DNA of 64,000 nucleotides from assembly GCA_040882565.1 (NCBI GenBank), contig JBBEAZ010000024.1, positions 105,662-169,661 of the forward strand. The letters run 5' to 3'. A model generated the notes under the pieces. That model had not been told where the DNA came from. It did no database searches and saw nothing but the letters and a program-made list of their open reading frames with translations. The position numbers and the translations under genes are program-made. Shown here piece by piece: positions 561 to 9,480 of the stretch (within the stretch, counting starts at the first letter, position 1; each line of letters begins with the position of its first letter). Source of the DNA: Dehalococcoidia bacterium. GTDB taxonomy: Bacteria; Chloroflexota; Dehalococcoidia; SM23-28-2; RBG-16-64-32.

Positions 561-1673
561 TCATTCGCCCGCGTATCCGGGGTAACCCGTCACCAGGATG
601 TCCTCGCCGAGCCGCTCCACCGTCACCTCGCGCAGACGGAGCGCGTCGGCCATGCGGTCAGCGCCCTCGCCCGCCACGGCGCTGGGAGCATCCGCAGCAC
701 CGACGATGATCGGCGCTATGACGGCGTGCACCTTGTCCACGAGACCGTTGTCGAAGAACGAGCCCAAGATGACACCGCCGCCCTCGACGAGGAGCGTTAC
801 AACATCCCGCCGGCCCAGCTCTTCCAGCAGCGTCCGCAGGTAAACGTGCTCGCCGTCGAGCGGCAACGCGAGCACTTCCGCGCCGCGGCCTTCGATCGCC
901 GCCCGCCAATCGGCCGGAGCGTCCGGACCGGTCGCGACCAGCGTGTTGGCCGGGCCGGCCAGCGCCTGCGCCATCGGCGGCGTGCGTCCACGTGTGTCAA
1001 CGACCACTCGCAGCGGCTGCCGTTCGGCGTCCTCGCCGCCCGGGCGCGCCGTCAGCTGCGGGTCGTCCACTACTACAGTCGAGGAGCCGACGAGGATCGC
1101 GTCGATGCGGGTCCGCAGCAGGTGCGCCCATTCGCGCGTCTCCGGCCCCGAGACCCAGCGCGAATCGCCCGACGCCGCCGCAATCTTGCCGTCGAGCGAG
1201 GCCGCGAACTTCGCGATCACAAACGGCAGGCCGGTCGTGCGGTGCTTGAAGAAGGCCTCGTTGATGCGCCGGGCTTCGGCGTCGCCTTCACCGGCGATAG
1301 TGCTGATCCCGGCGGCTTCCAGTGCCTTTTGACCGCGTCCATCTACTTTCTTGTCAGGATCGCCGATTGCGTAGTGCACCTCCACTACGCCCGCAGCGAT
1401 GATCGCCTCGGCGCAGGGCGACGTCTGCCCGTGGTGAGCGCACGGCTCGAGGGTCACGAACATCGTCGCGCCGCGCGCTCGCTCTCCCGCCGCCTCCAGC
1501 GCGACGACCTCCGCGTGCGGACCCGGCGGCGGCTGCGTCACGCCTTCACCGACCACAGTTCCGTCAGCGGCCACGACAACGGCTGCCACCAGCGGGTTCG
1601 GTGAGACGTACTGCGGGGCGTTCCGCGCCAGTTCGAGGGCGCGCTCCATTGGTTCGGGGGTCATCGCGGCCAT
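561..1673 (-). CDS. ribD: bifunctional riboflavin-biosynthesis deaminase / 5-amino-6-(5-phosphoribosylamino)uracil reductase RibD
   Basis: 370 aa. It has the CMP/dCMP-deaminase zinc motifs HAEVVAL and TLEPCAHHGQTSPC, followed by a RibD C-terminal reductase-like domain (KFAASLDGKIA, LLVEGGG). Confidence 0.9.
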   Translation of the reverse strand: MAAMTPEPMERALELARNAPQYVSPNPLVAAVVVAADGTVVGEGVTQPPPGPHAEVVALEAAGERARGATMFVTLEPCAHHGQTSPCAEAIIAAGVVEVHYAIGDPDKKVDGRGQKALEAAGISTIAGEGDAEARRINEAFFKHRTTGLPFVIAKFAASLDGKIAAASGDSRWVSGPETREWAHLLRTRIDAILVGSSTVVVDDPQLTARPGGEDAERQPLRVVVDTRGRTPPMAQALAGPANTLVATGPDAPADWRAAIEGRGAEVLALPLDGEHVYLRTLLEELGRRDVVTLLVEGGGVILGSFFDNGLVDKVHAVIAPIIVGAADAPSAVAGEGADRMADALRLREVTVERLGEDILVTGYPGYAGE

Positions 1674-1729
1674 TATCCAACCTCAGGCTCGCGCGCTGCT
1701 ATACTTTCGCTTGCGGAAGGAGCACGCCA

Positions 1730-2329
1730 ATGGCAGCAGTCAGCGAACGAATCGAGAAGATCATCCAGACGATCAAGGACGAGCGGCGACGCTTCTACGT
1801 GTTCTGCCTCTCGCTGAGCGATGAGGAACTAGCGCGGCCAGTCCCCAACAGCACGTGGACGGTAAAGGACTTCATCCCGCACCTCGGGACCCTCGATACG
1901 CAGATCATCCGCTGGTTCGAGGGCGTAGCCGCCGGCATCCCCGATGAGACGATCCGCGACTCGGAAGGCGCTCCCTTCAACATCGACAACTGGAACGACC
2001 GCGCCGTGGCCGAGCGCCGCGACTGGACAGTGGAGCAGACCCTCGACGAGGCAGAGGCCAACCGCGAGCAGTTGATTGCCACTCTTGAGAGGCTCACCGA
2101 CGAGAACATCGAGACGATCGTCCACTTCAGCGGCGACAACAAGCGCCCCGCCGCCAAGGTGCCGCTCAAGTTCTTCCTCTCCGGATGGGCGCACCACGAC
2201 GCCATCCACGTCGCGGACATGCTGAAAGCGCTCCCCGAGCGGGCCAACGACCCCGAGATGAGGGCCTGGCTCGACCACCCGGCCGTCACCTGGTACCAGA
2301 AGGCGATGGAGGGGCCGGCGGTCCGCTAG
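1730..2329 (+). CDS. DinB/MDMPI-like (DinB_2 superfamily) four-helix-bundle protein
   Basis: The start was chosen at ATG 1730 (MAAVSERIEKII), preceded by GGAAGGAG. The longer listed ORF from 1601 has a low-complexity Arg-rich leader. The W-T-V-K-D-F-I-P-H-L motif and conserved His residues are typical of DinB_2 / mycothiol maleylpyruvate isomerase N-terminal-like proteins. A paralog lies at 57375-57866. Confidence 0.6.
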   Translation: MAAVSERIEKIIQTIKDERRRFYVFCLSLSDEELARPVPNSTWTVKDFIPHLGTLDTQIIRWFEGVAAGIPDETIRDSEGAPFNIDNWNDRAVAERRDWTVEQTLDEAEANREQLIATLERLTDENIETIVHFSGDNKRPAAKVPLKFFLSGWAHHDAIHVADMLKALPERANDPEMRAWLDHPAVTWYQKAMEGPAVR

Positions 2330-2860
2330 GCACCAAGCGCATTCAATCGACGTTTCACAGCGTTCAATCGACGCTTTCGGCGGTCGTGTGTATCTGCGCT
2401 TTCGTTGTCCGGCGGGAACGGTTCGTCCGGGTCACAGTCATCGGGTTTCGTCGCCTGTCTCGACTCTGGGACTGTAGCCACCCTCATACCATACTTGCAA
2501 TTGTGGATATTCGTGACACTTTGAGAGCAATCACTTCGGACAGAGAATTGCGGAAGATGAGAGCGAAGAACTGAGCACGTATTTCGTTGAGACCGACCAA
2601 TGGCAGCGCATGTTCAAAGGTGAGGTCGGGTGCCGTTCTTGTACCGAGATGCGCTCGATATGGTTCAAGGAGCCGCCGAGTAGTGCGCGTGTCGGCTGTT
2701 ACAACGGTCAGAGCTGGTGATAATCGCTGACATTTTGACATCTGTGGCACGTAACCGCCCGACAGCCCATGGGAGCTGGCGGGAATGGCGAAGGATGAGA
2801 TTGACAGCACTCCTACAGCAGGTGCATTGTAGGGCCCACTAGGACCTAATGGGAGGACAC

Positions 2861-4027
2861 ATGTCATCTCTTACGCTGTTGGCGGGAACGAGCAATCAGG
2901 CCCAAAGTGAACGCTGTCCTTGGTGTGACAACCCGATAACCCACCGGCAGTTCGAGGAAATAAGAGCGAGAATAGCCTCCGAAGAGCGGAAGCGAGCGGC
3001 GGACGCGGCTGCCCAGTTAGAGGCGGAGCTCAACAGAGAGCGCGCGGAGGCCAAGAAGGTCGTGGAGTCAGAACGGGCCCGTCTAGCGAAGGAAGCCGAC
3101 GCCAGGGTGACCGCTGAGGTTAAGTCGGCCCGCGAAGAAGCGGCCGAGGCAAGCCGTCTCCAACTCGCCGAGATGGAGAAGGCGGCCATAGCCGCCGAGG
3201 CGCGCGTCGACGCTCTTGAAGCGGGCCAAGAAGATATGATTGCGGCCCGGCTCAAGGAGCAACGGACCGCCCTAGAGAAGGACAAGATTGACGCTTTGAA
3301 CGCCGAAAGGGCGCAGCGCTCAAAGGACGAGCTGAAGTTCAAAGAGAAGGTCGACCTCCTCCAACGTCAGCTCGAGAAGAAGACAGCGGAAGACCTAGGT
3401 GAGGGCGCAGAGGTCGACCTCTTCGAAACGCTGAGGGAGGCGTTCCCCGAGGACCTCATCACGCGAGTCGGGAAAGGTAAGGAAGGCGCCGACATTTTGC
3501 ACAGGGTCCGGGACTCTGGCGGCCACCAGTGCGGTTCAATCGTCTACGATTCCAAGAATCGCACGGCTTGGCGCAACGAATACGTAACAAAGCTTCGGAA
3601 GGATCAACTTGTAGCGAAAGCGGAGCACGCGATTCTCACATCTCTCGCGTTCCCAGCCGGCGCGAGGCAGCTTCACTTGCAGGATAGCGTGGTTGTATGC
3701 AATCCCGCGCGAGCTCGGGCAATCGTTGAATTGCTTCGCCGACATATCGTACAGACCCACACCATGCGGCTCAGCGCAGAGGCACGAGCCGAGAAGACTG
3801 CGCATCTGTACGATTTCGTAACATCAGATCAATGCGCTCAACTCCTAGAACAAATCGAGGCGCGTGCCGCAGACATTCTGACCCTTGACGTCACTGACAA
3901 GAAAGCGCACGAGTCGACCTGGAAGAAGCGTGGCGAAATGGTGCGCGCGATTGAGCGTGCTCACTTGGACCTTTCCACGGAGATTGATCGCATCATTGGT
4001 GGGCAATCGATTCGGCTCGTGAAATAG
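2861..4027 (+). CDS. zinc-ribbon / long coiled-coil protein with a C-terminal DUF2130-like region (possible PD-(D/E)xK nuclease fold)
   Basis: ATG 2861 follows GGGAGG. The N-terminus has a CPWC zinc ribbon. About 200 aa of E/K/A-rich coiled coil follow. The C-terminus has the conserved block GKGKEGADILHRV ... GSIVYDSKN ... W ... KLRKDQ, read by eye as a D / D-x-K catalytic-like arrangement. The DUF2130 assignment is from memory of the family architecture and was not searched. Confidence 0.75.
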   Translation: MSSLTLLAGTSNQAQSERCPWCDNPITHRQFEEIRARIASEERKRAADAAAQLEAELNRERAEAKKVVESERARLAKEADARVTAEVKSAREEAAEASRLQLAEMEKAAIAAEARVDALEAGQEDMIAARLKEQRTALEKDKIDALNAERAQRSKDELKFKEKVDLLQRQLEKKTAEDLGEGAEVDLFETLREAFPEDLITRVGKGKEGADILHRVRDSGGHQCGSIVYDSKNRTAWRNEYVTKLRKDQLVAKAEHAILTSLAFPAGARQLHLQDSVVVCNPARARAIVELLRRHIVQTHTMRLSAEARAEKTAHLYDFVTSDQCAQLLEQIEARAADILTLDVTDKKAHESTWKKRGEMVRAIERAHLDLSTEIDRIIGGQSIRLVK

Positions 4028-4028
4028 C

Positions 4029-4982
4029 ATGGGGGATCCGAAGGTGGTTCGCCTTGCTCCCAATCTAGACGCGTTGCAGGAACGTCGACTGGGTCGCACT
4101 GTACTTCGTACCTATCGGGCTACTCTGGACATCGACGACCTCATTCCCAACGAACGCCAACCTAGGCTAGGACCGAAGGAAGACGACGAACTACAGCGCC
4201 AAATTGAGGCCAATGAAGGAGTCTTCGAGCCCTTGCTGGTCGAACCTCACCCTGATGTGCCAGACAAATTCAGAATAATTGACGGCGAGCGACGTTGGAC
4301 GAACTCACTCGCGCTTGTGCACCAGGGGAAAGAACAGTATCGACAGCTGCCCGTCGAGATAACAGATAGAACACTCTCTGACGATGAACGATTGAGGGCG
4401 TGGATTTACATTCATCGCCAGCGCAAAGAATGGGACGCCAAAGAGAAAGAGATGGTGGCCTACAGACTCGTACAGTTAATGGGACGAGCCAGCGCCGCCA
4501 GTATATTGGGCATCACCGTTAGAGAACTGGATAAGCTGGTCGACATATTCGAGCTGTCTGAGCGGTTTGACAATCTGCGGGACCCGAGCGCAGCTATCAC
4601 CTGGGCACGTGAACTGAATGGCGTAAGCAAGAAGCTTCTAACCCCATCGATCGTTGATGCCGTCGTAGGCAAAGTCGGCGACAAGCGCATAACGAACTCT
4701 AAGGATATTCGCAAACTTCGTGTGATCCTTCGCGATCCAGTAGCCAAGGCGAACTTCCTGTCGGATGAGGGTGATATTGATTCCGCGTTGCTGCGAATTG
4801 CCCCGGACGAATCCAGTAAGGACGAACGTGACATCCTCACTCAGCTCGACTTCGCGATGGAGTCCATCCGACGTGCTCCGTGGACTACGCTTGAACAACA
4901 CCGAGGAGACGACCGCTTGATTCGACGCATCGATGAAGCCGAGGAGCTCCTTAGGGCGCTACGCGAGAAGTTGTCGAGGTAG
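4029..4982 (+). CDS. ParB/Srx (ParB N-terminal CTPase / nuclease-like) domain protein with a central HTH
   Basis: The start lies 1 nt after the upstream stop (TAG 4025-4027, ATG 4029), suggesting translational coupling. EPLLVEP ... FRIIDGERRWTNS matches the ParB box II GERRxRA arginine-finger motif. AASILGITVRELDKLV is HTH-like. The C-terminal 130 aa are helical and of unknown function. The gene has about 52 % GC. Confidence 0.8.
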   Translation: MGDPKVVRLAPNLDALQERRLGRTVLRTYRATLDIDDLIPNERQPRLGPKEDDELQRQIEANEGVFEPLLVEPHPDVPDKFRIIDGERRWTNSLALVHQGKEQYRQLPVEITDRTLSDDERLRAWIYIHRQRKEWDAKEKEMVAYRLVQLMGRASAASILGITVRELDKLVDIFELSERFDNLRDPSAAITWARELNGVSKKLLTPSIVDAVVGKVGDKRITNSKDIRKLRVILRDPVAKANFLSDEGDIDSALLRIAPDESSKDERDILTQLDFAMESIRRAPWTTLEQHRGDDRLIRRIDEAEELLRALREKLSR

Positions 4983-5054
4983 GGTCCCGCCGTTAGGAGC
5001 CGCCGGGCAATATGCGGCGCGTCAACTTACGCGAGCGTCAGCGTTTGAGAAAGA

Positions 5055-5225
5055 GACCGTCGAGGACGCCACGCAGGAGCTGTCGCATTGACAAGCCTTG
5101 GCGTCGAAGTTCCGGAGGGAGCGCGACTTGGCGGCCGCTGGTCCGCGAATCTTGCGGCCTGGTTGTCGCGGACTTAGAGTAGGGCGCGATGACGGGGAGA
5201 CCGGGGATTCCCCCTCGCGCAGAGG
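5055..5225 (+). repeat. copy A of an imperfect ~145-170 bp direct repeat (partner at 18186-18330)
   Basis: It aligns at about 85 % identity with 18186-18330. Shared blocks are GTCGCAT, AAGTTCCGGAGGGA, GCGACTT and GGTCCGCGAATCTTGCGGC..GTCGCGGACTTAG..GATGACGG. It has nested hairpins (GTCCGCGA/TCGCGGAC and CCGC-gaatctt-GCGG). Confidence 0.7.
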
Positions 5226-5390
5226 CTTCGGGCGCGAAGTCGAAAGGGGTATGTGGCACGGCCACGCCAGTGTCTCAGGACCCTCTCGGCGGCGAGGTGG
5301 TGGCAATGCGATGGGCTGGCTGTATCGCCCTCGGCCCAAGGGGGGTTACCTCGACCGGCTCATCCCCCGTTACCACTTGGACTGTCTGTC

Positions 5391-5756
5391 TTATGGAACG
5401 TCTTTCTTGGTTTGATTCAGCTTCTCCAATACCGCAGCGAGGGCGTCGATTGTTGCGTCGACGTCGAGAGCTCTGCGGCGGGCATTGTCGTGTATCCAAG
5501 CTAGAGCCTCGGACATTGGTTCACCCTCATCAACGCTGAATTCGTCAATCTGTACGCCCTGTTCGTTGGCGATGGACAAGGTATAGGTGGCACTAAAGGT
5601 AGATTTTAGATCACCGGTGATCCTGACCGAGGCAGGGCCAAAGTTGGCGTCGAAGATGCTATAGTCCGGTTTCGCAATTAGCGCGCGCCATTCTAGCTTG
5701 TCGCTGGCTTCAGCTAGATTCTTAACGATCGATTCGTATCTTGGTGGTATGGGCAT
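5391..5756 (-). CDS. hypothetical protein (121 aa)
   Basis: It is a clean ORF on the low-GC islet with no recognisable motifs (MPIPPRYESIVKNLAEASDKLEW...). Confidence 0.45.
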   Translation of the reverse strand: MPIPPRYESIVKNLAEASDKLEWRALIAKPDYSIFDANFGPASVRITGDLKSTFSATYTLSIANEQGVQIDEFSVDEGEPMSEALAWIHDNARRRALDVDATIDALAAVLEKLNQTKKDVP

Positions 5757-5766
5757 CCTATTTCCT

Positions 5767-6270
5767 TTACGCTTGGCGAGCGTCGAACTGCATTCTAGTC
5801 GATAGGGCGGTGAGAAAAGAAGAAAGTTGCGTTAGGGAGACATGCACGCTCGTCAGTTGTGAATCCTTGGGGTGCGACTCACCTAGTGTGGCCTTGAGTA
5901 GCAGTTTCTCCATATCCTCTACCTGCTCGATGTGCGAGTTGAATGTTTGGGTATCGTCTGCCGGGATGCCAGCTCCTGCGAGCTTTGCGAGGGCTTCCCT
6001 TAGATCGCTCATGCGACCGAGAGCGGCGCCATACTGCCGGTTTCGGACGTGCTCTTGGAGGTTAGTAATGATTCGAACAGCGTTAGTCAGGTCAGTCAGT
6101 TGAAGCTGGCGTGCGAGTTGTCGGGTTGTCGCGTAGACGGTTTCGGCTCTCTTTGCGACAGTATCGGCAGCACTGCGAATCTGCCAGACGGCAACTATCA
6201 GCGCGACGGCTGTCGCCCCTATCCCAGCCAATGCGATGATGTCACGCCAGCCGTCATTCAGAAATCCCAT
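5767..6270 (-). CDS. hypothetical membrane-anchored coiled-coil protein (about 167 aa)
   Basis: The start was moved to Met 6270 (MGFLNDGWRDIIALAGIGATAVALIVAVW, one TM helix). The upstream part of the listed ORF (to 6438) only translates the tRNA-like remnant (..GLEPPTPG..). Confidence 0.5.
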   Translation of the reverse strand: MGFLNDGWRDIIALAGIGATAVALIVAVWQIRSAADTVAKRAETVYATTRQLARQLQLTDLTNAVRIITNLQEHVRNRQYGAALGRMSDLREALAKLAGAGIPADDTQTFNSHIEQVEDMEKLLLKATLGESHPKDSQLTSVHVSLTQLSSFLTALSTRMQFDARQA

Positions 6271-6356
6271 TTCACCGTATGATAATGGTTTGTAGGCACC
6301 CGTGATCTTGGGCGCACAGCGCTCACAACCTGAGATACGGACGCACACCGCCAGCA

Positions 6357-6410
6357 GGATTAGGTTTCCTAAACCGGGTGTCGGCGGTTCGAGTCCGTCC
6401 CGGGGCACCA
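6357..6410 (+). pseudogene. tRNA-Arg(CCU)-like 3' fragment: anticodon arm to CCA, with no matching 5' half. Likely an att-site remnant
   Basis: TAGGT-TTCCTAA-ACCGG / GTGTC / GGCGG-TTCGAGT-CCGTC / CCGGGGC-A-CCA. It has a canonical T-arm and U33/A37 flanking the CCT anticodon. The required 5' acceptor strand GCCCCGG is absent upstream. Confidence 0.5.
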
Positions 6411-6618
6411 CAATTTCGTGCCTGTAGCGAAACCCCATCGACCTACGGTCGGCGCCGGTCCGGGCGAGCCCGCGACCCTCGGAGTGGAAGGAATATCTGC
6501 CCGCTATAAGTCAAGTTACGTTGATTGTGAGGTTGGTTTGGTCATACCCATTCGCGTTCATGACGTAGATCTCAGAGAGTTCGGGTCGGACTAGCGCGGC
6601 GCTTACAATACCCCTGAC

Positions 6619-7158
6619 TTGGCACCCATTACCTATCGCCCCTTTGTTCCCGCTGACCTCCCGCGCATCCGCGACATAGATCGCAGCGAGCGCATCGGCG
6701 TCCTCTATATCCAGCACGGAACACAGCCAGAGGAACGCCGCGGCGACTTCGACTCCCCCAACTGGCTCACGGAAGGCGACGGCGAGCACTCTCTTGCGGC
6801 CCAGCAAGCGCACGTCGAGGAGTTGCTGGCGTCAGGCGCTGTTGCCCTCGGCGCTTTCGATGGCGATCGCCTGGCTGGCATCGGCGTTCTTGTCCAGCAC
6901 CTGCGGCCCGGCGTCGCGCAGCTCGCCTACCTGCACGTGAGCAACGGCTATCGGGCCAGCGGCATCGGCCAGCGGCTGTCCGAGGACCTCGACCACATCG
7001 CCAGGGAAGGCGGCGACAGCGAGATCGTCGTCTCCGCTACGCCGTCACAGAACACCGTGCGTTTCTACACGGGCCGCGGCTACCAGCCGATGGCCGAGCC
7101 GCTCCCCGAACTCTTCGCGCTGGAGCCGGAGGACATCCACCTCCACAAGAAGCTGTAG
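6619..7158 (+). CDS. GNAT family N-acetyltransferase
   Basis: 179 aa, apparent TTG start. The acetyl-CoA motif region is GIGQRL .. VRFYTGRGY. Confidence 0.8.
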   Translation: MAPITYRPFVPADLPRIRDIDRSERIGVLYIQHGTQPEERRGDFDSPNWLTEGDGEHSLAAQQAHVEELLASGAVALGAFDGDRLAGIGVLVQHLRPGVAQLAYLHVSNGYRASGIGQRLSEDLDHIAREGGDSEIVVSATPSQNTVRFYTGRGYQPMAEPLPELFALEPEDIHLHKKL

Positions 7159-7258
7159 CCCGCCGAGGGCGGTATCATCGCAGCGATGAGACAACAAAAT
7201 GACCCTATTCTTCCGAGAAGTAGGGCCGTAAGCGAGGCAAGGCCCCGGCGAACGACGG

Positions 7259-7576
7259 TTAACGGGCTGTGATGGGCTCCACGCTGCCGTCGGCCGCGAT
7301 GCGCGACGCCAGGATGACCGTCGCCCCGAAGAGATCGCCGTCTTCTTCGATCGGTTCGCCGGCGTTGAGGCCGACGCGGACGTTCAGCGGCTCGCCCTCG
7401 CGGTCGGCAAAGGCGCGTTGGAGCCCGTTGGCGTCGCCTCCTCGGAGCCGTTGACAGTCGCCGGATCCCCCGCCAACGGACGAACCCCCAGGGCTGACGG
7501 CCGCGCTCCACCCACCGGCTGACGGTGCGCCGGTCGATCCCCAGCCTCCGTGCTGCTTCTGAAGCGTTCCCGCCAC
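7259..7576 (-). pseudogene. possible remnant of a class III adenylyl/guanylyl cyclase (C-terminal ~45 aa of the cyclase homology domain only)
   Basis: VRVGLNAGEPIEEDGDLFGATVILASRIAA resembles the C-terminal cyclase motif (IRIGIHTGEVV..GD.FG..VN.AARL). The N-terminal two-thirds of the domain are missing. Confidence 0.3.
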
Positions 7577-7752
7577 ACTCTCTTCAGGTTTCGATGATTT
7601 CTCGTATCTCTGTTCGCTGCATCCGTCATTCTAAGCACCTGTGCCATAAGTCGTGAGAGAACAAGAGTTAGTTGACTAATTCTGCGGCCACTCCTATACT
7701 TAACCCACTTCGGAAAAGGATCGAGGCTCGCGGGCCGGGGGAGGGGTTTAAG

Positions 7753-9480
7753 ATGCTCAGGTCGATTTCGCTCGGCGTTCTTGCCGTAGTACTTGTCGTT
7801 GTCGCCGCCTACTTGGACGGCGCCGGGGACAGAAGCGAGGCCGCTCCCGATCCTGACGTTATTCCGGGCCGCTACATTGTCACGCTGACGCCCGGTATCG
7901 CCGCTCATGCCTTCGCTCAAGAGACGGGTTCCCGGCTCGGTTTTCGAGCGGACGTCGTGTATTCCCACGCTCTCAACGGGTTTGCGGCCAACCTGCCAGC
8001 TCAGGCGGCGCAAGCCCTTGCCCGCGATTCCGGGGTTCTCTCCATCGAACCAGACCGCATCGCCCGCGTCACCGATCAGATTCTGCCAACGGGCATCGAC
8101 CGCATCGACGTAGACGAAAATAGCACTGCGGGAATCGCCGGCGACGGTGGTGCTATGGACGTTGATATCGCCATCATCGACACAGGCATCGACGTCGATC
8201 ACCCGGACCTGAACGTGGTTGGTGGCGCTCGATTCTCCGGGTCGGGGTTCGCCATCTTCTGGACTTGCGACAATGGCAGCGGCTCGTTTGACGACGATAA
8301 TGCGCACGGCACCCACGTCGCCGGCACCGCGGCTGCCAGGGACAACTCCGTGGGAGTAGTGGGAGTGGCGCCCGGCGCCCGCCTGCACGCGGTCAAGGTG
8401 CTGACATCGGGGGGCACAGGTGCCTACTCGTGCATCATTATGGGGATCGACTGGGTGACCGCGCGAGCCGACACGATCGATGTCGCGAACATGAGCCTCG
8501 GCGGCGGCAGCAGCAGCGCCCTCTGCAACGCCATCCAGAACTCGGTCAACGCCGGAGTCGTCTATGCCGTCGCCGCGGGCAATGAGATCGTAGACGCTGA
8601 AACCCGCAGCCCCGCGAACTGCGCCCCTGTGGTGACGGTGTCAGCTATCGCCGACTTTGACGGAAAGCCGGGAGGTCTGCAGGACGAGACGATCGCGTTC
8701 TCATCCTGCACGGAGACCGAAGACGACTCGTTTGCCTGTTTCAGTAACTTCGGTTCGACCATCGAGGTGGCGGCGCCGGGAGTGAAGATCCTGTCCACGC
8801 TCCCGGGCGGCGGCACCGGGACCGGCTCAGGTACAAGCATGGCCAGTCCCCATGTGGCAGGGGCGATCGCCCTGTACAAGGTCGCGAACCCCGCTTACAA
8901 CACCAGTCATGGTCCCACCGTCATCGCCGACATGACCGCGGACGGCTGGACGGTCCCGCAGGACAGCCCCTGTGGCTTTGACGGTGACCCGGACAGCTAC
9001 CCTGAGCCGCTGATCTACGGCGGCTCAAGCTGCCTCGGTGGCGCGACACCCACGCCCTCGCCGACTCCATCGCCCACGCCGACACCCACGGCGTCACCCG
9101 AGCCCACGCCGACGCCAACACCTACCGCGTCACCGGCACCCACACCAACACCGACGCCGGCGCCGGACGGAACGATGCACGTGGCAAGCCTCAGCGGCAT
9201 AAGCATCAGCCAGGGTTCAACCTGGGTCGCGCAGGTAACGATAACGGTCCACGATTCAGCCAACAACCCGGTGGCCGATGCAACTGTTTTCGGATCCTGG
9301 AGCCTGGGCTCGCCGTCCTCCGGCAACTGCACGACGAACGGCGCCGGGCAATGTACGCTCACTAGCGGCAGCATCCCTAAACGGAATTCGTCCGTCACGT
9401 TTACCGTCACAAACGTCACGTACACGACACTCGTCTACGATCCGAGTGGAACAACTTCAATAACCATCGCCAAGCCGTAG
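7753..9480 (+). CDS. secreted S8 subtilisin-like serine protease with I9 propeptide, Pro/Thr linker and C-terminal beta domain
   Basis: The start was chosen at ATG 7753 after GGGGAGGGG, followed by a signal peptide. The catalytic triad motifs are DTGIDVDHPDL, HGTHVAGT and GTSMASPHVAG. The linker is TPTPSPTPSPTPTPTASPEPTPTP. Confidence 0.9.
   Translation: MLRSISLGVLAVVLVVVAAYLDGAGDRSEAAPDPDVIPGRYIVTLTPGIAAHAFAQETGSRLGFRADVVYSHALNGFAANLPAQAAQALARDSGVLSIEPDRIARVTDQILPTGIDRIDVDENSTAGIAGDGGAMDVDIAIIDTGIDVDHPDLNVVGGARFSGSGFAIFWTCDNGSGSFDDDNAHGTHVAGTAAARDNSVGVVGVAPGARLHAVKVLTSGGTGAYSCIIMGIDWVTARADTIDVANMSLGGGSSSALCNAIQNSVNAGVVYAVAAGNEIVDAETRSPANCAPVVTVSAIADFDGKPGGLQDETIAFSSCTETEDDSFACFSNFGSTIEVAAPGVKILSTLPGGGTGTGSGTSMASPHVAGAIALYKVANPAYNTSHGPTVIADMTADGWTVPQDSPCGFDGDPDSYPEPLIYGGSSCLGGATPTPSPTPSPTPTPTASPEPTPTPTPTASPAPTPTPTPAPDGTMHVASLSGISISQGSTWVAQVTITVHDSANNPVADATVFGSWSLGSPSSGNCTTNGAGQCTLTSGSIPKRNSSVTFTVTNVTYTTLVYDPSGTTSITIAKP

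Follow-up and report, generated by a model that had tools for sequence, protein, structure and literature searches.

We analysed a 64,000-nucleotide stretch of a Dehalococcoidia bacterium genome (contig JBBEAZ010000024.1, positions 105,662 to 169,661 of the forward strand; hereafter the window, with coordinates counted from its first letter), in which two adjacent plus-strand genes, one for a DUF2130 protein and one for an orphan ParB-like protein, form a conserved module that travels with its own promoter element. Gene 1 (2861-4027, 388 amino acids (aa)) encodes a CPxC knuckle, a long helix, a PD-(D/E)xK domain and a C-terminal helical bundle, and gene 2 (4029-4982, 317 aa) a ParB/Srx N-terminal domain, a helix-turn-helix (HTH) and a helical C-terminal region. 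A model's reading of the letters alone (the sequence-only reading) had placed the two genes 1 nucleotide (nt) apart, and the open reading frame (ORF) listing agrees: they share a strand, their junction reads TAG-c-ATG, and no Shine-Dalgarno sequence precedes the start of gene 2. Both domain assignments of that reading also hold, as gene 1 matches Pfam PF09903 (DUF2130; residues 159-371, E=4e-29, 102.1 bits against a cut-off of 26.7) and gene 2 matches PF02195 (ParB_N; E=1.3e-6, 28.8 bits against a cut-off of 26.3) and has the ParB/Srx fold. The ribosome-binding site of gene 1, GGGAGG (2851-2856, plus strand), was read directly 4 nt before the ATG at 2861, and GGAG stands at the equivalent spot in homologous loci; an alternative ATG at 2849 falls within this site. 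Identical proteins in a Dehalococcoidia metagenome-assembled genome are annotated as 'DUF2130 domain-containing protein' and 'ParB N-terminal domain-containing protein'.

Relatives of gene 2 are rare and patchy, occurring in 216 of 185,579 species when one genome per species was scanned, and our analysis covers the 80 loci returned from these. A DUF2130 gene lies directly upstream on the same strand in 79 of the 80, that is, in 79 of 79 testable loci, the sole exception beginning at a contig end. The concern raised with the sequence-only reading, that homologs of the two genes might never be found together, can thus be set aside. Paired loci come from Alpha-, Beta- and Gammaproteobacteria, Actinomycetota, Acidobacteriota, Verrucomicrobiota, Nitrospirota, Myxococcota and Binatota, and the module spans at least 8 phyla. 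In 78 loci the stop-to-start distance lies between -23 and +10 nt; the commonest value, -4, is the ATGA overlap seen in 34 of them. Clustering of ORFs within 10 kb on either side recovered just two families common to the loci, the next real family occurring in no more than 8 of them. We conclude that the pair is a conserved autonomous two-gene module. One genome locus (L035, 9448-10001) has the genes about 550 nt apart instead of coupled, possibly owing to an insertion.

A collection of 5.8 billion proteins holds 3948 homologs of gene 2, the best 120 of which are 71-92% identical to it. Cultivable carriers include Brucella oryzae, Sphingobium xanthum, Mesorhizobium comanense and Bradyrhizobium species. 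Relatives of gene 2 were found on 5 of 72,556 plasmids; in the copy on the Rhizobium p4 plasmid, IS5 truncates gene 1 and leaves gene 2 intact. The reverse loss, gene 1 of this subfamily without gene 2, was seen neither in the genome loci nor in the metagenome stretches described below. A phage origin was considered and rejected, as none of 50,697 phage records and only 1 of 2.9 million viral contigs carried a relative of gene 2, and the promoter motif was absent from viral contigs. The single 'viral' contig resembles an integrative island, with a large serine recombinase, a methyltransferase, a QueC-like gene and no virion genes.

The main new result, which the sequence-only reading missed, is a conserved cis element that travels with the module. 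Counts of k-mers in the 300 nt upstream of gene 1 recovered TAGGACCTA or TAGGTCCTA together with TAGGA repeats in most loci, and anchoring on the palindrome gave the consensus TTGACt-N3-(t/c)(a/g)GGA-N2-AA-N-TAGGA-N-AAAA-TAGGACCTA. The element thus opens with TTGACA, continues with TAGGA repeats spaced 10 nt apart and closes with the palindrome TAGGWCCTA. In the window, the -35-like hexamer TTGACA of the module promoter lies at 2801-2806 and the operator-like repeats at 2811-2848 (both plus strand), the latter made up of an inverted CTCCTA (2811-2816), TAGGG (2830-2834) and the palindrome TAGGACCTA (2840-2848). Of 49 distinct sequences, 40 have 27-30 nt from the start of TTGAC to the palindrome and 7 have 37-39 nt, one helical turn more; the window copy falls in the 39-nt spacing class. 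From palindrome to start codon the distance is 14-39 nt.

The element is specific to the module's promoter in the DNA we scanned. TAGGWCCTA occurs once in the 64-kb window, and 55 of 70 upstream regions, spread over all phyla, contain exact TAGG[AT]CC[TC]A, the remainder carrying TAGGA repeats. Across 1.3 Mb of homologous-locus DNA, 65 of 70 matches to the palindrome and 63 of 64 matches to TAGGA-N5-TAGGA are found immediately before gene 1. When metagenome contigs were scanned without bias for TAGGANAAAATAGGWCCTA, 82 stretches came back, and 80 of them were assessed: 44 matches stand at a gene 1 start and 10 are too near a contig end to judge. For sites of the parS type, the loci hold one conserved repeat cluster, in the module's own promoter, and not dispersed copies. 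Consensus scans for promoters and terminators in the window performed at chance level.

A noncoding element kept across phyla, its overlap with the promoter and the near-invariant HTH encoded next to it suggest that the TAGGA/TAGGWCCTA element is probably the operator of the ParB-like HTH protein. The conserved promoter-operator thus recasts this protein mainly as a candidate site-specific DNA-binding regulator. Separately, six metagenome contigs (L093, L133, L135, L136, L165 and L172) carry intergenic arrays or perfect hairpins of the TAGGACCTA unit (such as AAAATAGGTCCTATAGGACCTATTTT); neither a DUF2130 nor a ParB-like gene lies close by. These arrays could belong to a repeat family of REP or terminator type, and the shared motif could reflect either chance or kinship.

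We conclude that gene 1 encodes a PD-(D/E)xK nuclease of the DUF2130 family, its nuclease activity being predicted from conserved residues and the modelled fold. The sequence-only reading had suspected such a core in the block EGADILHRV/VYDSKN/KLRKDQ, and both the fold and the conservation of D211 and D230-x-K232 favour it. Residues 187-302 (3419-3766, plus strand) are predicted to adopt the alpha-beta-beta-beta-alpha-beta core, with D211 at nt 3491-3493, D230 at 3548-3550 and K232 at 3554-3556. Across 34 homologs D211, K232, N233, K244 and D248 are invariant and D230 is present in at least 90%, within the motifs GADI(LH), (V)YDSKN and KLRKDQ; distant DUF2130 members that occur solo carry G(A/G)D...ExK. 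A fold search placed Holliday-junction resolvases (Hjc), NucS and Bax1 among its best matches and gave none to Rad50. A search against solved structures returned coiled-coil noise only, and Pfam gave no RmuC match. DUF2130 and RmuC have both been listed as PD-(D/E)xK families of unknown molecular function, with RmuC tied only to DNA recombination (Steczkiewicz 2012). The only phage matches to the DUF2130 family are seven Helicobacter heilmannii prophage records (BK070121-BK070128), which hold a distant DUF2130-like nuclease domain with 31.7% identity over 66% of the domain.

At the other end of the protein, residues 19-22 (2915-2926, plus strand) form a CPWC knuckle, the sole conserved cysteine pair, in which C19, P20 and C22 are invariant in the 34 homologs. 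The sequence-only reading had called this a zinc ribbon; the CPWC is real, but the full ribbon is not supported. There is no second CxxC, and the His at about position 28 varies among the 34 homologs and the distant members, so that a single CPxC pair is conserved and the classical four-ligand zinc ribbon falls away. Distant DUF2130 proteins that occur solo, from Alphaproteobacteria, Acidobacteriota, Bacteroidota and Campylobacterota, likewise have just one CP[SKHN]C, at residues 9-16. Since each chain offers two cysteines, zinc binding would need two chains. Next comes a single long alpha-helix, a presumed coiled-coil stalk, spanning residues 28-174 (2942-3382, plus strand; AlphaFold2 secondary structure); the predicted 147 aa fall short of the roughly 200 aa of coiled coil first described, although the helix itself is there. 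Stalk length differs among homologs, whose total length is 388-614 aa with a median of 534. The zinc hook of Rad50/SbcC likewise places C-P-x-C at a coiled-coil end in a nuclease-associated protein, a resemblance that we treat as a lead only. Gene 1 differs in having no ABC ATPase head and in carrying its CPxC at the N-terminus of one helix rather than at the apex of an antiparallel coiled coil.

The ParB/Srx nucleotide-binding fold of gene 2 covers residues 17-132 (4077-4424, plus strand), with box I QPR at 44-46, box II GERRW at 86-90 (nt 4284-4298) and a degenerate box III, IHRQR, at 128-132. The arginine-finger box IIDGERRW of the sequence-only reading was located at residues 83-90, and its HTH at residues 137-181 (4437-4571, plus strand), a nearly invariant region (GRASAANILGITVRELDKLV). 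Box I Q44-P45-R46 and box II G86-(E/D)-R88-R89 are invariant, and the third Arg of GERRxR is replaced by Thr. Alignment to Caulobacter ParB (6t1f) pairs QPR with QPR, GERRWRAA with G(D/E)RRWTNS and ENVQR with IHRQR. Box III (I128-H129-R130-Q131-R132) therefore departs from ENxQR, the catalytic Glu-Asn having become Ile-His and Q and R alone being kept. The earlier label 'CTPase/nuclease' is doubtful given this replacement and the lost box II Arg; with boxes I and II kept and the catalytic residues of box III lost, a ligand-controlled switch is likelier than a hydrolase of cytidine triphosphate (CTP). Orphan ParBs with a similarly divergent box III have been reported in a survey that does not mention DUF2130, and neither sequence nor AlphaFold3 reliably predicts the nucleoside triphosphate (NTP) specificity of such proteins (PNAS 2025, PMC12704722).

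In fold and domain order gene 2 matches ParB and KorB, and its similarity to solved ParB structures is marginal (best E=1.5e-5). The ParA-binding motif (L/F/I)G(K/R)G(L/F/I) is not present, its place being taken by a conserved L21-G22-R23-T24-V25. Gene 2 also falls below the cut-offs of TIGR00180 parB_part (33.2 bits against 58.45) and of the ParB of the 'ParB-related, ThiF-related cassette' (PRTRC), TIGR03734 (40.6 bits against 278.6). The sequence-only reading noted the lack of a ParA partner, and rightly so: there is no ParA gene in the window, and a ParA homolog lies within 10 kb in only 1 of 80 loci. We rejected assignment to a plasmid partition (ParABS) system on the lack of an adjacent ParA, the lack of a ParA-binding motif and the TIGR00180 score. 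A long antisense ORF within gene 2 (4460-4840, minus strand), with an equivalent in 58 loci, is most likely the shadow of a highly conserved GC-rich sense frame and not a gene.

Gene 2 is strikingly conserved at the protein level. The window copy is 66-75% identical to other loci, and the median is 76% for random locus pairs; for gene 1 the median identity is 49%. Four-fold degenerate third positions in identical residues are only about 33% identical between the window and other loci, that is, saturated. We therefore reject recent spread as the cause of the high identity, and attribute the conservation of gene 2 to strong purifying selection. A library of representatives at 50% identity holds only 73 proteins at E<=1e-30, mostly fragments, which suggests a core family of about one cluster plus about a dozen divergent full-length clusters.

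Five more distant ParB-like relatives were looked up; in three, a nearby contig end or a short contig hid the upstream gene. A 46%-identical relative overlaps by 14 nt with a divergent DUF2130 gene (hhalign probability 99.9%, CPYC included) and has different upstream repeats; PADLOC gave the divergent pair in locus L179 the same result as the window pair, with no system match. A 40%-identical relative (L182, 3557-7357) has no DUF2130 upstream; its downstream neighbours encode a 634-aa GHKL ATPase (HATPase_c_3) and a 246-aa protein, and a distinct palindrome, TTACGGTAA/TTACCGTAA, precedes it. The latter locus hints that the ParB-like regulator can pair with other effectors. Together, the two relatives offer anecdotal support for covariation of operator and protein.

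The module occurs in varied surroundings, many of them rich in mobile or defence genes. Neighbourhoods include an integrative and conjugative element (ICE) with a type IV secretion system, a relaxase and HipBA; a set with Mrr, a reverse transcriptase, McrB-N/HNH and a serine recombinase; a set with SNF2, an N6/N4 methyltransferase and ResIII; and a set with NERD, RES, Multi_ubiq-ThiF, an integrase and Fic. In plasmids of Aminobacter and Skermanella the pair stands near genes for ArdC, a large ParB-N protein and DUF3991-toprim. Families that recur around the module are type I restriction-modification subunits, Multi_ubiq/ThiF/DUF6527, ArdC, a UvrD-type helicase and integrases. A PADLOC scan of the 148 nearest neighbours recognised Upx, CBASS components, DRT, Mokosh (MkoA), JetB, PD-T7-1 and PDC families. 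This association with defence genes is one of examples and not of statistics, the list of 148 neighbours being diverse and having no background set.

Distant solo DUF2130 genes keep comparable company: one lies directly upstream of OLD and UvrD genes (Gabija-like), one between a WYL regulator and a type I restriction-modification system, and one next to NB-ARC, and others adjoin relaxase, ParA and ArdC in the transfer regions of Mesorhizobium and Bradyrhizobium conjugative plasmids. On an Aliarcobacter butzleri plasmid (L178, 4383-9589) only 1 nt separates the end of the solo DUF2130 gene from an OLD-family ATP-dependent endonuclease, which with a UvrD helicase makes up the Gabija-like pair; this suggests that DUF2130 may be an accessory to other defence systems. 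Several unrelated module loci carry a Multi_ubiq and ThiF/DUF6791 cassette, in some cases with DUF6527, shortly downstream (L061, 16083-18413; L089-L091, 11000-12410; L084, 16050-18639; L179, 7420-8244). The best NCBIfam match of gene 2, far below cut-off, is the PRTRC ParB, and this resemblance to Multi_ubiq-ThiF surroundings may be a coincidence or a looser linkage.

In the window, the module sits in a low-GC islet of 4.3 kb (about 2330-6600; G+C content (GC) 0.567) that is context and not part of the conserved module. As the sequence-only reading had it, the pair is lower in GC (0.566) than its left flank (0.681) and right flank (0.640), the whole window being at 0.633. GC at third codon positions is 0.67 and 0.59 in the two genes and 0.82-0.89 in the flanking RibD, DinB-family and GNAT genes. 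Two other islet ORFs on the minus strand, 5391-5756 and 5767-6438, accompany the pair only in this organism and have no significant match in Pfam, PADLOC, NCBIfam or PHROGs; one of the two (5391-5756, 5767-6270) has a predicted hydrophobic segment.

The islet's right edge, 1.4 kb beyond the end of gene 2, holds a 28-nt tRNA 3'-end fragment (T-arm, acceptor stem and CCA; GGCGGTTCGAGTCCGTCCCGGGGCACCA; 6383-6410, plus strand), an exact match unique in the window where none is expected by chance. The 'pseudo-tRNA' that the sequence-only reading set beside the pair comes down to this fragment, and no tRNA or RNA family was called by ARAGORN over the whole 64-kb window or by Rfam (E<=1) over 1500-7500. 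The fragment may be what is left of an att site bounding a decayed integrative islet on the right; a search for att sites found no convincing direct repeat at the left edge to pair with it. It overlaps the N-terminus of the 223-aa minus-strand ORF 5767-6438, which makes an internal Met near 6270 the probable real start of that ORF. At the left edge, directly after the stop of the DinB-family gene, stands a tandem direct repeat, GCATTCAATCGACGTTT / GCGTTCAATCGACGCTT, with 21-nt spacing (2339-2376, plus strand). Beyond the islet, a 602-aa ORF (7672-9480, plus strand) shows, on a reading of its translation only, the subtilase-type motifs DTGID, HGTHVAG and GTSMASPHVAG followed by a Pro/Thr-rich linker beginning PTPSPTPSPTPTPT.

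DUF2130 and ParB_N are established, annotated families. What is undescribed in the searchable literature and in PADLOC v2 is their obligate pairing, the portable operator and the architecture of CPxC, stalk and nuclease seen throughout the DUF2130 family. The sequence-only reading could map the pair to no named system, and PADLOC v2 likewise has no model for either protein. Its matches to gene 1 (LmuB and PDC-S06) involve the coiled coil only, LmuB weakly at E=1.7e-5 over residues 13-176. DUF2130, COG4487 and PF09903 appear in the literature only in a 2012 catalogue and in incidental mentions, and the literature joining ParB-like proteins to defence consists of work on Dnd, Ssp, BREX and CDI ToxB, none of it on this pair.

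Several known systems share parts of this architecture. Taken as a whole, the module would work most like an autoregulated cassette of effector and regulator, its orphan ParB being KorB-like and its coiled-coil nuclease RmuC-like. Lamassu (LmuB) and Wadjet also combine long coiled coils with a nuclease effector in defence-island contexts, and we rejected membership in either, as LmuB matches only the coiled coil and there is neither an SMC/ABC ATPase head nor an LmuA or JetD-type partner. RmuC (PF02646) has the same order of an N-terminal coiled coil and a PD-(D/E)xK domain, but DUF2130 is a separate Pfam family with an N-terminal CPxC knuckle and a subfamily obligately paired with a ParB-like gene. 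KorB (RK2, IncP) and the orphan ParBs of PMC12704722 resemble gene 2 in having no ParA-binding motif, in their link to mobile elements and in a palindromic promoter site that suggests repressor activity. Gene 2 differs from KorB in that its partner is a DUF2130 nuclease and not KorA/IncC, and in having a single operator at its own promoter rather than a plasmid-wide regulon.

We suggest that the pair is a horizontally mobile, self-regulated two-gene conflict module in which release of the nuclease would serve defence, a reading to which we give about an even chance; a function in either defence or addiction is plausible. Gene 1 would be the effector, a dimeric coiled-coil PD-(D/E)xK DNA nuclease with its stalk tipped by a single CPxC knuckle that could form a shared-zinc contact in the manner of the Rad50 hook. 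The gene 2 protein would bind the TAGGA-repeat/TAGGWCCTA element overlapping its own promoter and so repress the operon. Translational coupling would supply it in fixed proportion to the nuclease, which it probably restrains as well, and its NTP pocket would serve as a ligand-controlled switch rather than a CTP hydrolase. Relief of repression or restraint, whether by invading DNA, transcription shut-off or a changed nucleotide status, would let the nuclease cut DNA, and this cutting may protect the host or the island against phages or plasmids, directly or by abortive infection. A bolder version, which we entertain only tentatively, is that DUF2130 is an unrecognised nuclease class with a zinc-hook-like stalk tip, held here by an orphan ParB acting as a nucleotide-gated switch on a universal TAGGA operator until altered NTP state or incoming foreign DNA sets it free.

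A number of observations weigh against a defence module of this kind. PADLOC-DB v2.0.0 holds no system model for either protein, with gene 2 having no matches at all, and identities of 70-76% across phyla contrast with the rapid evolution of the sensors in most defence systems. By Pfam, many of the genes next to the module have housekeeping roles (among them gyrA, purH, PEP carboxylase and ThiC). About 26 of the 80 assessed metagenome motif matches are unrelated to the module, falling in AT-rich DNA or in a palindromic repeat element, and we infer that the ParB-like protein would bind the TAGGA element from co-conservation alone. The window copy has the shortest stalk of the family (388 aa against a median of 534), and this, together with the decayed look of the islet, means that activity in this particular organism is not assured.

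The nearest rival to the defence reading, though in our judgement an unlikely one, is a toxin-antitoxin-like addiction module that stabilises its carrier element and has no role in immunity; the nuclease would be the toxin, the ParB-like HTH protein a labile antitoxin and autorepressor, and loss of the island would bring post-segregational killing. HigBA is a type II toxin-antitoxin operon with its toxin gene first, and the module resembles such systems in its overlapping coupled genes, downstream HTH protein, operator in the promoter and spread as patchy mobile cassettes. An overlapping operon with a DNA-binding partner is indeed what we find, its autoregulation being presumed, and the bicistronic layout with the putative toxin gene leading suits addiction. 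So does carriage on ICEs, integrative islands and conjugative plasmids, as does the finding of an IS-disrupted gene 1 beside an intact gene 2 and not, in this subfamily, of gene 1 without gene 2, and the HipBA, RES and AbiE modules nearby suggest that these regions gather such cassettes. However, the proteins, at 388-614 aa and about 317 aa, are 3-5 times larger than those of type II systems, which typically reach about 100 aa or less each. Simple neutralisation would give the conserved NTP-binding ParB fold of the candidate antitoxin no obvious role, and the long variable stalk with its CPxC tip suggests a DNA-bridging machine rather than a simple toxin. Distant DUF2130 genes also manage without an antitoxin-like partner, and presence on only 5 of 72,556 plasmids is little for an addiction cassette.

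Two further explanations fit less well. An accessory of mobile-element DNA processing, repair or recombination, like RmuC or SbcCD, would use the nuclease to resolve or trim DNA in transfer, integration or replication and the ParB-like protein as a site-specific loader or regulator; we consider this improbable. Its coiled coil joined to PD-(D/E)xK parallels RmuC, and Hjc, NucS and Bax1 are among its best fold matches, yet transfer or replication genes are missing from the surroundings of most loci, and conservation does not extend to a third gene. Solo DUF2130 genes beside relaxase, ParA and ArdC on the Mesorhizobium and Bradyrhizobium plasmids, and an Aminobacter/Skermanella copy among genes typical of transfer regions, speak for such a role, whereas the sole conserved site lies in the module's own promoter and not at an origin or att. 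Strong purifying selection would suit a housekeeping-type interaction, but the distribution is very sparse and many copies adjoin classical defence genes. Finally, a non-canonical partition or anchoring system, with the ParB-like protein binding the TAGGA direct repeats as a centromere and the coiled-coil protein serving as a tether, seems to us very improbable. In parMRC of plasmid R1, ParR binds parC within the promoter, and promoter-overlapping direct repeats at helical spacing resemble that arrangement and the type Ib centromere-operator arrangements, just as the fold and domain order of gene 2 resemble those of ParB and KorB. A partition system would, however, be expected to have a ParA or other NTPase motor, and none is conserved here (1 of 80 loci); LGRTV stands where LG[KR]G[LFI] would be needed, and the TIGR00180 score is too low. 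The partner moreover keeps its conserved nuclease catalytic residues, and copies are overwhelmingly chromosomal.

Orphan proteins with the ParB-CTPase fold are common on mobile elements, and almost none has an assigned function or partner. The fixed nuclease partner, the probable DNA site and the cultivable hosts described here make directly testable the idea that the ParB fold regulates an effector nuclease or acts as its sensor. They also provide a first functional lead for DUF2130/COG4487, a PD-(D/E)xK family listed since 2012 as being of unknown function. If the module does serve defence or addiction, it would be a compact two-gene cassette with an unusually conserved, portable operator-repressor pair that could be used as a regulatory part. 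If the nucleotide-gated version of this mechanism is true, the module would represent a new system of immunity or addiction controlled by an NTP switch, in which operator, regulator and effector move jointly between phyla.

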